Of a DNA stretch of 64,000 nucleotides, positions 60,965 through 64,000 are shown in pieces. The number at the start of each line of letters is the position of its first letter. Position 1 is the first letter of the stretch. The DNA is from Candidatus Iainarchaeum sp. (lineage in GTDB: Archaea; Iainarchaeota; Iainarchaeia; Iainarchaeales; JAXPJC01): NCBI GenBank assembly GCA_016187745.1, contig JACPJC010000005.1, forward strand, positions 64,001-128,000. The letters are read 5' to 3'. The position numbers were made by a program, and so were the translations under genes. Below the pieces are notes generated by a model, which worked only from the letters and a program-made list of their open reading frames with translations, was not told where the DNA came from and made no database searches.

Positions 60965-62251
60965 TTATTTATTTTCCTGAACATCTTTTAATTGCTCGGG
61001 TTTCATCAACTCGCGCAGCACAGTTGTTGCGTAATTCCCCTTTTCCAGTGTGAATGAGATTTTCGCCTTGAGCGCGCCCTCGAAATACTCATCATATGCA
61101 ATTTCCTCAAGCTTCAAATCCTGCGGAAACAGCAGAATTGTTTTCCTCGCGCCCTTTGAGCTTATTTGCGGAAATGCCTTTATGTAGAAGTCTTCCGGCT
61201 TTATTCCTTCCTTGCCAAGCACTTCCCTCTCAATTTCCCCGACTTTCCCCTCAGAGAATTTTGATTCAAACCCGAAAAGCTGCGCGGTTGCAATTCCATC
61301 CTCAAGCACGTCCCCCTCTGCCGCCTGCAATCCCAATCCACTTTCAATCCGCTTATTTATGATTTGATTGAATAGATAGCTCTGATACGCATGCGTGAAC
61401 ATGTATGTAAGGGACTTCGGCAGGCGCGAAAAGGCCCCGACAAAATCCTTGGGGTATTTGCACAAATGATGGATTATTATCCTCTCATAGCGGTATTTCG
61501 GGGGGAACTCATTTATTGCCCTTGAAAAGTCCTTCGTATCCGCGAGATTCTTCCTCGCATTTTTAATGTCTTCCTCTTCCCTTTCATCAATTGCCGTCAG
61601 GTAGAGCATTACTGCATTTTCAGTATTTCCCATTATGAATTCCTTCCCCACGAGATGCGTAATTCCGCGGATTCCCCCGAAGCGCTGCTCCCCGAAATAA
61701 TTCGCAATTCCCCCTTTAATTTCCCCAAAGCACGCATTAATGCGCCTCTCCAGTTCCTCCTTTTCAAGCTGCAGATTGCGCACCATTATTGTGAATTTAT
61801 TCCCGATCAAATCCCCGATTTCAACCCTCTTATCGCTCCACTCCGCCTCCCTCAGGTCAATATAGCGCGAATCAAAAGCCTTCAGCAGCTCAACATCAGC
61901 CTTCCATATTGAAATGCGCTGGCAGGTTATTGCGCGCTTGTCCTTCATTCCCGCAAACCCAATCCTTTTCCTGCTCGTGTGCAGCGCCCTTGCAATTCTT
62001 CTCAGCGCATTTGCGGTATCAACATTGAATTTTTCCATCTTCACTATCAGCTGATTCTCCTTAGCCCTCTCATCCGCAAGAGGCGCCGGCCATTTCTTCT
62101 CAAGCGTTTTTTTCTCCGAATCAGTAAAAACCATGGCTTCGCAAATTTCATTTCCGGGCGCAACTTCCTCCACAATGAAATCCGCAATGCGTTTCCTCAG
62201 AACGCCGCCAATTCCCGGAGCGGAAGTCGAATAATGGTTTATTGCGCTCAA
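60965..62251 (-). CDS. truD: tRNA pseudouridine(13) synthase
   Basis: DFIVEE, AGMKDKRAITCQ, GNKF, NYFGEQRFG, HAYQSYLFN, G.YAT.VLRE. Confidence 0.96.
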   Translation of the reverse strand: MSAINHYSTSAPGIGGVLRKRIADFIVEEVAPGNEICEAMVFTDSEKKTLEKKWPAPLADERAKENQLIVKMEKFNVDTANALRRIARALHTSRKRIGFAGMKDKRAITCQRISIWKADVELLKAFDSRYIDLREAEWSDKRVEIGDLIGNKFTIMVRNLQLEKEELERRINACFGEIKGGIANYFGEQRFGGIRGITHLVGKEFIMGNTENAVMLYLTAIDEREEEDIKNARKNLADTKDFSRAINEFPPKYRYERIIIHHLCKYPKDFVGAFSRLPKSLTYMFTHAYQSYLFNQIINKRIESGLGLQAAEGDVLEDGIATAQLFGFESKFSEGKVGEIEREVLGKEGIKPEDFYIKAFPQISSKGARKTILLFPQDLKLEEIAYDEYFEGALKAKISFTLEKGNYATTVLRELMKPEQLKDVQENK

Positions 62252-62255
62252 AGGA

Positions 62256-62528
62256 TCACTTTTTTATTATTTTAGCAATCATACTAATTCTGGGGTTACC
62301 TTCATCATCAATAACTTTTCGGGCATAATAATTAACCCCTGTTCCAATAGCATAACCCAAAAATACTTCATCATTTGTTCCAAGAATTGTGCTTCTTTTG
62401 CGTGCAAGGGACAGCAGAATTGATTTTGGAACACCCTCTCCATACAAAAGATCCTCAGGATTAAGTTTTTTATATAACTTTCCGCCAATTTTTACACGCC
62501 TAGATCTTGGTGGCTTGTTTCCCGGCAT
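62256..62528 (-). CDS. Small basic hypothetical protein
   Basis: 90-aa AT-rich ORF tightly packed between aRF1 and truD. Confidence 0.6.
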   Translation of the reverse strand: MPGNKPPRSRRVKIGGKLYKKLNPEDLLYGEGVPKSILLSLARKRSTILGTNDEVFLGYAIGTGVNYYARKVIDDEGNPRISMIAKIIKK

Positions 62529-62533
62529 ATTCC

Positions 62534-63781
62534 CTACCTATATCTCAATATTGCTCCGAGCCCGCCGAAGGTTTTGTAGAACTGCTCCCCTTCCGCGGTT
62601 TCTGTTGAAATTAATTTCATTTCCGCATCAATCTTGTGCACCTTTTCCAGCAGCCAGTCTGCATAATCCACTTCCTCCATTATTTCAGCCTCGGCATTGC
62701 ATTTTGTGCATTTTGGGATTCCCCCCAAACCGAAGCGGTTTTTCACAAGGATTTCCTCGTTATTATTGCAGTGCCCGCAGAGCAGCCTGTAAACAACCCA
62801 GTCTATCGCCTCAGAAACCAGAAGGGTTTTTACCTTTCCCTCAGCAAGCGCAGTTTCCACTTCCTTCTGCCCGTAGGTCGCAAGCGCGCCCTTCACAACC
62901 TCCTGAAGGAAACTGTTAACAGCAAGCCTTTCCTTCATTACCTCTGTGCTTTTCAGTATTTCCTCGCTTTTCTGGAACAATTCCCTTATTCCGGACTCAT
63001 CAGTGTAGGAAGTGTCAAGTGTTCCTAGCACCATCCCCTTAAGCCTGTAATCAAGCAGGTCCTGCTCAAGAAAATAATTTTTTGTGGCGCCAGGCCCCCC
63101 GATAATTATGCCCTTCATTTTATTCCCGTATACAAGATAGATTGCGCCCATTTTTTCCGCAATGCGCTTGAAGAAGTCGTGCGTTGCCTCTTCCCTCAAT
63201 CTCTCATACCTGTGCGCCGAAAATCCCCCTGCCTTTACCTTTCCCGGAACCGCGGAAGTTATTCTTCCCAGAACCTCGTATTTCTTGCCCACAAGCGCAG
63301 CAAATGTCGCCTCCCTCTTGTCAAGGGTTGCCAATCCATAAATCTCCGAGGGCGCAGCCATTTCCTCAAGCGGATCCAGATGGAACTGCGAATCGCACCA
63401 GTACAATTTTACTTTCAGCCTCCTCAGCGGCCTTACAGTAAAGAGGGTTATGTCGCTCCTTCCCTCCTGCTCGGAAATATTCCCGCAAAAAACTACCAAC
63501 CCCCTCTCAGGCAGCTGGAAATTTATCCTTTTGAGGAAATTTGATATTTTCCTGAGCGCGCCCTGCACATTCTTGCGCGTTGTGGGGCTCTTTATGTTGG
63601 AGCTCTGCGAAGTTTCCTCGGTAAGCTGCCCCATAACCAGGCTTCTGTCAACATCCGGGGGCAAATAAAGTGAAATCAGCTCAGTCCCCTTTCCCTTGAA
63701 GGCCTTGAGCATCTTTAGTTTTTTCTTGAATACTGCTGCTTCAGCCTCGTCAATCTTCTCCAGTTCCTTCATGTTCATCAT
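62534..63781 (-). CDS. prf1: Peptide chain release factor aRF1 (GGQ motif reads GGF)
   Basis: GTELISLY, NIKS, YWCDSQF, VPGK..AGGFSAHRYERLRE, IGGPG.TK, FGGLGAILRY. Confidence 0.95.
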   Translation of the reverse strand: MMNMKELEKIDEAEAAVFKKKLKMLKAFKGKGTELISLYLPPDVDRSLVMGQLTEETSQSSNIKSPTTRKNVQGALRKISNFLKRINFQLPERGLVVFCGNISEQEGRSDITLFTVRPLRRLKVKLYWCDSQFHLDPLEEMAAPSEIYGLATLDKREATFAALVGKKYEVLGRITSAVPGKVKAGGFSAHRYERLREEATHDFFKRIAEKMGAIYLVYGNKMKGIIIGGPGATKNYFLEQDLLDYRLKGMVLGTLDTSYTDESGIRELFQKSEEILKSTEVMKERLAVNSFLQEVVKGALATYGQKEVETALAEGKVKTLLVSEAIDWVVYRLLCGHCNNNEEILVKNRFGLGGIPKCTKCNAEAEIMEEVDYADWLLEKVHKIDAEMKLISTETAEGEQFYKTFGGLGAILRYR

Positions 63782-63871
63782 TACTTCTTCTTGATTTTTA
63801 TAGTTTGGGTTTAGGTTATCTTTTTATATTACCTTTCCCATTAATTATCAGCAAAACAAAAGGCTGCAAAA

Positions 63872-64000
63872 ATGTTTGAGATGTTCCAGAATTACAATGA
63901 GCCGGCGCAACAGCAGCAGGGCGCAGGCTCCTCAAATCAGACCTTTGTGCTTTCAATTAGCGGCTCCTCAATTGTGCCTGACAGGATAAATACCGCGCTG
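63872..64000 (+). CDS. 5' part of a gene, probably UMP kinase (amino-acid kinase fold)
   Basis: MFEMFQNYNEPAQQQQGAGSSNQTFVLSISGSSIVPDRINTAL, open to the window end; resembles the archaeal PyrH N-terminal V.S.GGS..VP motif. Confidence 0.5.
   Translation, partial: MFEMFQNYNEPAQQQQGAGSSNQTFVLSISGSSIVPDRINTAL

Follow-up and report, generated by a model that had tools for sequence, protein, structure and literature searches.

The aRF1 gene and its GGF loop

The gene considered here encodes the class I release factor aRF1 and lies in a 64,000-nucleotide stretch of DNA from Candidatus Iainarchaeum sp. (assembly GCA_016187745.1, contig JACPJC010000005.1, positions 64,001 to 128,000 of the forward strand), which is called the window below. 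An open reading frame (ORF) of 415 amino acids on the minus strand, at 62534..63781, encodes a full-length aRF1 with three domains. The codons GGG GGA TTT at 63229-63221 (minus) are found exactly where an earlier examination of the sequence (the original prediction) had placed them. They specify G185, G186 and F187, and the DNA of the loop, gca ggg gga ttt tcg gcg cac, is translated as A-G-G-F-S-A-H. GGQ is the textbook motif common to unrelated release factors across the three domains of life, and the tripeptide by which a classical aRF1 is recognized is GGF in the window protein. Replacement of this Gln in the aRF1 of DPANN archaea, coupled to the absence of the methylase that modifies it, recurs and is, it appears, undescribed; no prior description of a GGF, GGW or GGM aRF1 was found in the full-text literature searched, a body of text that largely leaves out subscription journals and excludes supplements.

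The original prediction also held that the two stop-recognition motifs and all three domains were intact, and this was borne out. Both motifs are present in the translation (Table 1), and the Pfam models eRF1_1 (residues 23-141, 51.1 bits), eRF1_2 (residues 148-277, 125.3 bits) and eRF1_3 (residues 282-415, 76.7 bits) all match above their cut-offs. The NCBIfam equivalog model for aRF-1, TIGR03676, scores 455.3 bits, with a cut-off of 234.7. The Pelota model TIGR00111 gives 61.3 bits, far under its cut-off of 177.65, and the acVLRF1 model 29 bits, also far below cut-off. The closest solved structure is an archaeal aRF1, 4af1_A, which aligns over the full length of the protein (E 7.6e-75). In this alignment the stretch PGKVKAGGFSAHRYERLR pairs gaplessly with PGKQRKGGQSAQRFARLR of 4af1_A, and F187 falls on the Gln of GGQ. 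Judged by its sequence, the window protein is an aRF1 orthologue by descent and non-canonical by motif.

Apart from this substitution the protein is well conserved. Among 105 GGQ homologs 101 columns are near-invariant, and the window protein departs at 3 of them, including position 187; GGQ sequences depart at up to 8 of the same columns. The two glycines and the flanking residues, GKxxxGG.SxxR[FY]xR, are conserved, and the length of the loop is fixed. The insert with paired cysteines in domain C is, on alignment, an ordinary feature of archaeal aRF1.

Table 1. Coordinates of the aRF1 gene and of its motifs in the window
Feature	Position	Strand	Evidence
aRF1 gene, 415 amino acids	62534..63781	minus	ORF, TIGR03676, Pfam eRF1_1/2/3, search of its own genome
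GGF tripeptide (residues 185-187)	63221..63229	minus	Translation, alignment to 4af1_A, contigs of four runs, L090/L094
NIKS stop-codon recognition motif, residues 62-65, intact	63587..63598	minus	Translation; close relatives carry NIKS too
YxCxxxF motif, YWCDSQF, residues 127-133, intact	63383..63403	minus	Translation
CxxC...CxxC insert in domain C, C335-C361	62699..62779	minus	Translation; aligned to the Cys-bearing insert of 4af1_A

Authenticity of the TTT codon

A change of all three bases separates TTT from CAA and CAG, so that a single miscalled base is insufficient to explain it, as the original prediction had argued. Logan contigs from four sequencing runs span positions 62400-63900 with 0 differences from the window, at word depths of 96, 63, 25 and 44. 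Further evidence comes from a diverged copy of the gene. Two metagenome contigs, L090 and L094, which are identical to each other in aRF1, differ from the window gene at 118 of 1248 bases and still read GGG GGA TTT. There are 100 synonymous and 8 non-synonymous codon differences, which correspond to a non-synonymous divergence (dN) of 0.0156, a synonymous divergence (dS) of 0.519 and a dN/dS ratio of 0.03. Because this copy keeps TTT at such a ratio, the window aRF1 is under strong purifying selection, and has been since the change from Gln to Phe.

An artefact could have come from a mistake in sequencing or assembly, from a contig of contaminating DNA or from a pseudogene in decay. The source genome (G000) is a metagenome-type assembly with an estimated contamination of 1.79%, and its 23S rRNA gene has an odd gap of 138 nucleotides. 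Against such an origin stand the three-base difference, the identity of the contigs from four runs at depths of 25-96, and the retention of TTT under purifying selection in the diverged copy. The aRF1 gene is also located on the largest contig of G000 (298 kb), which carries Pelota as well, and the same class of change occurs in dozens of independent assemblies. An artefact is excluded within the reach of contig-level evidence, and the probability that we would still give it is close to nil.

Gene copy number, stop codons and tRNAs

The assembly of G000 comprises 964 kb in 10 contigs and is 91% complete, with 1.8% contamination. When it was searched with the window protein (E up to 10), only aRF1 itself and a Pelota-like frame of 362 amino acids were found; no second aRF1-like gene besides Pelota was seen in this 91% complete genome. 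Since the window aRF1 is the only gene of its kind in G000 apart from Pelota, it is unlikely to be a spare paralog beside a canonical copy. A GGQ copy was found neither in G000 nor in 13 other non-Gln genomes searched for aRF1. A single match to TIGR03676 over the cut-off is present in each of G196, G197, G198, G199, G200, G232 and G109, and likewise in each of G498, G499, G220, G223, G282, G315 and G242 (G198 is the same genome as G036, discussed below).

The long frames of G000 (at least 250 codons, n = 515) end in TAA (206), TGA (201) and TAG (108). Its tRNAs include tRNA-Phe(GAA), tRNA-Gln(CUG) and an intron-bearing tRNA-Gln(UUG). A suppressor tRNA-Stop(tta) called by ARAGORN at C1:292925-293048 was rejected: it contains a 48-nucleotide intron at position 37/38, and with the intron recognized the anticodon is UUG and the molecule a tRNA-Gln. 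Neither stop-codon use nor the tRNA set of G000 gives any sign of recoding.

The original prediction had offered two interpretations, a non-canonical termination loop and a hydrolysis-deficient paralog that reads stop codons. The second, as a paralog beside a canonical aRF1, is unsupported, there being no GGQ copy in any of the genomes searched. The first is favoured by the status of the gene as the sole aRF1, by the dN/dS of 0.03, by recurrence in DPANN lineages and by loss of the Gln methylase alongside, the last two of which are described below.

A protein that reads stop codons and is dead in hydrolysis could also stand alone, if an unrecognized factor released the peptide or if the protein had a Pelota-like role in stalling, recycling or regulation. 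Passages of the literature treat Gln as the catalytic residue (PMC6514570) and term GGQ universal in a/eRF1 (PMC2613156), and Dom34 and most baeRF-1 proteins, which have no Gln, are interpreted there as non-catalytic (PMC6514570). However, the only other gene in G000 that resembles a release factor is Pelota, and the 13 other non-Gln genomes have a single aRF1. All three stop codons are used normally, which requires some factor to release the peptides. The conservation of the two glycines and their flanks, the fixed length of the loop and the low dN/dS also argue against an inactive protein; inactive families, as portrayed in parts of PMC6514570, show decay of the loop instead. In addition, the replacements are not random, being limited to F, W, Y, M and one A. 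A hydrolysis-dead aRF1 is, for these reasons, unlikely.

Recurrence of non-Gln aRF1

The pattern scans described here required the local context GKxxxGG...R[FY]. Within the order Iainarchaeales a scan that left the codon at the Gln position free matched 138 of 196 genomes, and a codon other than CAA or CAG was found only in G000 (TTT), G109 (TTC) and G036 (TGG). When the aRF1 of relatives was read through the loop (n = 28), 27 had GGQ and one, that of G036, GGW. The best 120 homologs in a large protein collection, by whose source names the organism falls in Diapherotrites/Iainarchaeum, comprised 111 with Q, 4 with F, 4 with W and 1 that was truncated. The four F homologs are made up of the window's own 98% cluster and a separate clade of three members (F2).

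A tree of 114 of these best 120 homologs requires three residue changes. In it a GGQ protein, P0003 (70% identity), is the sister of the window aRF1 outside its cluster, with a support of 99 in the Shimodaira-Hasegawa-like approximate likelihood-ratio test (SH-aLRT). Sequences differ considerably within the F2 clade and within the W clade (end branches of 0.15-0.32), so the aromatic residue has long been retained. A 23S rRNA tree joins G000 and G036 as sisters, moderately supported (SH-aLRT 94), and the private 23S changes common to the two are at positions 1299 and 2773. When an approximately unbiased (AU) test was applied to the aRF1 alignment, a union of the aRF1 of G000 with that of G036 was rejected at p = 0.024, for a group chosen after the tree had been viewed. 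The non-Gln residues of the order would thus have two or three origins, and the F and W of the families of G000 and G036 would have arisen once or twice.

Recurrence extends to other DPANN groups. A metagenome scan for codons beginning with T yielded further F variants, in aRF1 proteins of about 360 amino acids with NIKD, YRCDQTF and GGFSQ. A set of 120 homologs of these proteins, whose source names are Woesearchaeota or Nanoarchaeia, comprised 112 with Q, 7 with F and 1 with Y. A scan of one genome per GTDB species for the same T-initial codons gave 19 loci, mostly in Candidatus Aenigmatarchaeota records. Each encodes a full-length homolog of aRF1 (E <= 1e-71); the residue is W in 16 and F in 3.

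The phylum of G196, one of the genomes with such a locus, was sampled as 301 genomes with the codon at the site left free. A hand tally of the 77 matches, which come from 75 genomes, gave 45 with W, 12 with M, 1 each with A and F, and 18 with Q (the last in 16 genomes). A non-Gln residue of the W, M or A type is present in 58 of the 75 pattern-matching genomes, and about 25 of these 58 matches were individually confirmed as aRF1. The M and A matches that were checked (G220, G223, G282, G315 and G242) and the W matches that were checked (G196, G197, G199, G200 and G232) fall inside the only above-cut-off TIGR03676 match of their genome. Two genomes, G465 and G384, have two GGQ-type pattern matches apiece. 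The single F match, GGFSQ in G246 (L119:1015-1995, +), proved to be a VLRF-1-type paralog of 327 amino acids and was removed from the count: it has a coiled coil at the N-terminus, matches acVLRF1 best among the Pfam models (65 bits) and is without eRF1_3. The true aRF1 of G246 has GGQ.

A tree of 114 aRF1 proteins from the three groups needs 11 changes between Q and non-Q, with weak support for several of the branches on which they fall. The codons for W, M, Y and A lie two changes from CAA or CAG and those for F three; none is a single step away. The residues one step away, K, E, H, R, L and P, were not seen at the Gln position in any scan. That no such neighbour was found, and that every observed residue needs at least two changes, is better explained by selection for certain hydrophobic end states than by drift.

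A Gln two residues downstream of the replaced one is present in all 8 variants of the Woesearchaeota type and in the M and A types, and is missing in the window protein and many W types; it was therefore rejected as a requirement. This residue bears on another explanation, according to which the aromatic side chain shifts the choice of nucleophile, or the 3' end of the tRNA is cleaved as has been claimed for relatives of the Vms1/ANKZF1 type. VLRF-1 families carry GGxSQ in the passages of PMC6514570 that describe them, the G246 paralog has GGFSQ, and many non-Gln aRF1 proteins outside the window read GG[WMFA]SQ; the nuclease activity itself is given as a disputed claim in the same source (PMC6514570). 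The loop of the window protein is GGFSA, with no Gln at +2, and its architecture and hidden Markov model scores are those of a classical aRF1. Termination by tRNA cleavage would also need repair of the CCA end at each stop codon. Nothing in the present analysis supports altered chemistry, which we regard as highly improbable.

Loss of the Mtq2 methylase

In Haloferax, as described in passages of PMC6144793, Mtq2 methylates Gln187 of aRF1, and loss of Mtq2 halves the growth rate. The same passages state that Mtq2 orthologues exist in all archaeal phyla (PMC6144793). Mtq2 was searched for with TIGR00537 at a cut-off of 87 bits, and 163 of the 196 genomes of the order exceed it. G000 reaches no more than 37 bits, below the cut-off; tblastn with the Mtq2 of 8 relatives gave at most 38.5 bits there, and no methylase ORF with NPPY was seen. 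Trm112 had no match over the cut-off in G000 either, and by profile search both proteins are missing from G036. Mtq2 was over the cut-off in none of G196, G197, G199, G200, G498, G499, G230, G211 and G420.

In the sample of the G196 phylum 106 of the 301 genomes have Mtq2 over the cut-off, the strongest match (196 bits) being that of G246. A cross-tabulation by hand gave 1 of 58 non-Gln genomes vs 10 of 17 GGQ genomes, with one further GGQ genome in which the gene is cut by a contig end. The sole non-Gln genome over the cut-off is G232, with a long form at 87.5 bits. G109, in Iainarchaeales, has Trm112 and a protein of 362 amino acids with NPPF (L050:1201-2286, +) that scores 92.9 bits to TIGR00537 and has no close counterpart in 30 relatives. 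It is homologous along its length to the protein of 384 amino acids from G232 (L175, minus), with 29% identity over 336 amino acids. Both have an N-terminal extension of about 100 amino acids, and NPPF or NGPT in place of NPPY. The match in G109 was accordingly rejected as canonical Mtq2 and assigned to a long paralogous family shared with G232. Canonical Mtq2 was not seen in any non-Gln genome examined. Since GGQ genomes without Mtq2 exist and non-Gln genomes with canonical Mtq2 were not seen, methylation would have been lost before, or together with, the replacement of Gln.

Inteins suggest another possible pressure on this codon. Loss of the CAR codon would destroy a putative homing site at Q187/S188, and the hydrophobic residue would then be merely tolerated. 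Of 40 Iainarchaeales relatives, 9 carry an intein at GGQ|S, and inteins appear as 'GGQC..' in 4 of 120 and 10 of 120 of the homologs listed. All inteins seen are flanked by Q, and none by F, W, Y or M. Synonymous or neighbouring changes, however, would be equally effective and far less risky, and the tight link to the absence of Mtq2 is not predicted by intein avoidance. As the main explanation it appears quite improbable; as a contributing pressure it is possible. The inteins in the 9 relatives form single frames with aRF1 of 571-928 amino acids. Mini and large forms are both seen, and examples of aRF1 with an intein are G031:C11:38009-40750, L032 and the proteins P0047, P0093, P0095, P0118, P0167 and P0189.

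The peptidyl-transferase centre

The original prediction anticipated co-variation in the peptidyl-transferase centre of 23S rRNA, which was not found in 27 Iainarchaeales genomes or in 23 genomes of the G196 phylum. The 23S genes of the former (L059-L085) and domain V of the latter were aligned to E. coli numbering. G2061, C2063, G2251-2253, G2447, A2450, A2451 and G2505 do not vary between Q, F, W, M and A types, and neither do U2506, G2553, U2584, U2585 and A2602, apart from two single deviant cells in the comparison of the core, one in G211 and one, where an alignment piece ends, in G254. In domain V there are 3 private changes in G000 and 2 in G036, all of them outside the core. Because the peptidyl-transferase core is identical whatever the type of aRF1, co-variation in 23S rRNA was rejected as an explanation. 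Compensating residues within aRF1 fared no better. K183, V381, R93 and L408 are common to the window lineage and the W clade; K183 and L408 are also present in the GGQ sister P0003, and no consistent partner of position 187 emerged.

One unusual position of the centre is shared by all types. To our knowledge A2503 is otherwise conserved. E. coli position 2503 (loci L059-L085 and L128-L152) reads C or U in 26 of the 27 Iainarchaeales, the other one having a gap; of the 20 sequences from the G196 phylum that cover it, 19 likewise carry C or U. This applies to GGQ genomes as well as to the others, and 2504 is often C. Given that GGQ genomes also carry C or U there, the altered position 2503 may be a permissive background.

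The 23S gene of G000 (L062, C4:27111-29959, minus) has 2849 nucleotides and is the shortest and lowest-scoring of the 27. It is without a block of about 138 nucleotides, E. coli ~927-1064, which was not found elsewhere in the 10 contigs. Many 23S genes of the G196 phylum (L133, L135, L137, L141 and L144-L146) are 3.9-5.9 kb long, and their match to the model is broken into pieces, suggestive of large insertions or introns.

Proposed mechanism

We consider it likely that the window protein is a working aRF1 and the only class I release factor of its genome, which reads all stops and releases peptides with Phe in place of Gln. The intact NIKS and YxCxxxF motifs would read all three stop codons. 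The two glycines would hold the geometry of the loop and deliver residue 187 to the ester bond in the peptidyl-transferase centre, where the main-chain NH of this residue, the 2'-OH of A76 and the rRNA would carry out hydrolysis, the first two positioning the water. The side chain of Phe would fill the hydrophobic pocket of N5-methyl-Gln beside A2451 and U2506, and in other lineages Trp, Tyr or Met would serve as the filler. Mtq2 would be rendered useless, or its earlier loss in genome reduction would be compensated. Packing by Phe and hydrolysis through the backbone are proposed because, in the passages concerned, the side chain of Gln is described as packing, with methylation enhancing the packing (PMC5799190), and its backbone amide as able to catalyse hydrolysis (PMC6742477). 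We infer that a GGF aRF1 is catalytically competent and that Phe187 has a packing role. Packing is favoured over chemistry because Met recurs. Met is near methyl-Gln in length and is methyl-terminated. Gln mutants of human eRF1 reportedly retain partial activity, according to the title of a study by Seit-Nebi from 2000.

Several points weigh against this reading. Phe and Trp are far bulkier than methyl-Gln, and the 23S alignments contain no change in the peptidyl-transferase centre that would compensate for the greater bulk. The GGQ motif is said to be essential in the titles of studies by Frolova (1999) and Mora (2003). With G000 at 91% completeness, the missing part could still hold a second aRF1 or Mtq2. 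The four runs that agree on TTT are four samples from one study, possibly the source of the assembly, and were compared as contigs, not raw reads. Some GGQ genomes, such as G001 (99% complete), likewise have no Mtq2, so its loss is not peculiar to genomes with the replacement. Finally, related genomes are not independent, and the association between non-Gln residues and the absence of Mtq2 rests on roughly 8-11 events.

On balance we also favour the broader proposition that several DPANN lineages terminate routinely without the catalytic Gln or its methyltransferase and use F, W, Y or M instead, with about ten independent multi-step origins. If this is true, the Gln side chain is dispensable for the chemistry of hydrolysis in vivo. 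What has been conserved would then be its part in hydrophobic packing, obtained by most of life through methylation. Organisms that have only GGF, GGW, GGM or GGY and no Mtq2 amount to an evolutionary experiment on whether Gln is catalytic or serves for packing and exclusion of nucleophiles, and the same variants bear on the purpose of the methyl group. They also supply sequences that could be used as they stand in termination assays and in work on ribosome structure. Annotation pipelines call them 'aRF-1' and leave the missing Gln unflagged. Translation in DPANN archaea relies on a reduced apparatus, and a non-Gln aRF1 adds a further trait to it.

Neighbouring genes

Directly downstream of aRF1 is an ORF of 90 amino acids with no Pfam match (62256-62528, minus), and beyond it a gene for a tRNA pseudouridine synthase of the TruD family (60965-62251, minus; 393 bits). 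The three genes share a strand, are separated by 4-5 bases and may form one operon.

Comparison with known systems

With classical aRF1/eRF1 (TIGR03676; 4af1_A, 3agk_A and 1dt9_A) the window protein has in common the three domains, NIKS, YxCxxxF, the GG of the loop and the CxxC insert. Like a classical aRF1 its gene is single copy, and it is nested among the aRF1 of Iainarchaeales. It differs in two respects. The Gln of GGQ, universally conserved together with its methylation according to passages of PMC2613156 and PMC6144793, is replaced by Phe, and Mtq2, which the relevant passages of PMC6144793 place in all archaeal phyla, was not found in G000.

The families aVLRF-1 and acVLRF-1 belong to the same superfamily and, like the window protein, have a residue other than Gln after GG. 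The original prediction described an aromatic residue there and a downstream Gln in VLRF1-type paralogs. This description agrees with the motif GGxSQ given in the part of Burroughs and Aravind 2019 that deals with these families (PMC6514570) and with the GGFSQ of the G246 paralog, and the window protein falls outside the family. Whereas GGxSQ has its Gln two residues later, the window protein, with GGFSAH, has Ala at that place. In the account of PMC6514570, aVLRF-1 is without the C-terminal Pelota-type domain and has an N-terminal coiled coil, and acVLRF-1 is without the stop-codon domain; the window protein has both eRF1_1 and eRF1_3, and scores 125 bits to eRF1_2 vs 29 to acVLRF1. With all three domains present and no GGxSQ, it was rejected as a member of either family. 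The two families coexist with a canonical release factor (PMC6514570, in the sections on them), and no canonical partner of the window protein was found in G000.

Pelota/Dom34 and the Gln-less baeRF-1 proteins have the eRF1 fold and, though they have no catalytic Gln, enter the A site, as related in passages of PMC6514570 and PMC2613156. They have no NIKS or YxCxxxF and a truncated or variable loop, and are read as non-catalytic, whereas the window protein has both motifs. These motifs, the score to the Pelota model and the separate Pelota-like gene of G000 led to its rejection as a Pelota.

The last comparison is with laboratory substitutions of Gln in RF1, RF2 and eRF1, in which the same residue is replaced. 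Such engineered variants are reportedly impaired or lethal in vivo. The replacement in the window protein, by contrast, is natural, fixed and selected, and it is found in the sole factor of its kind.

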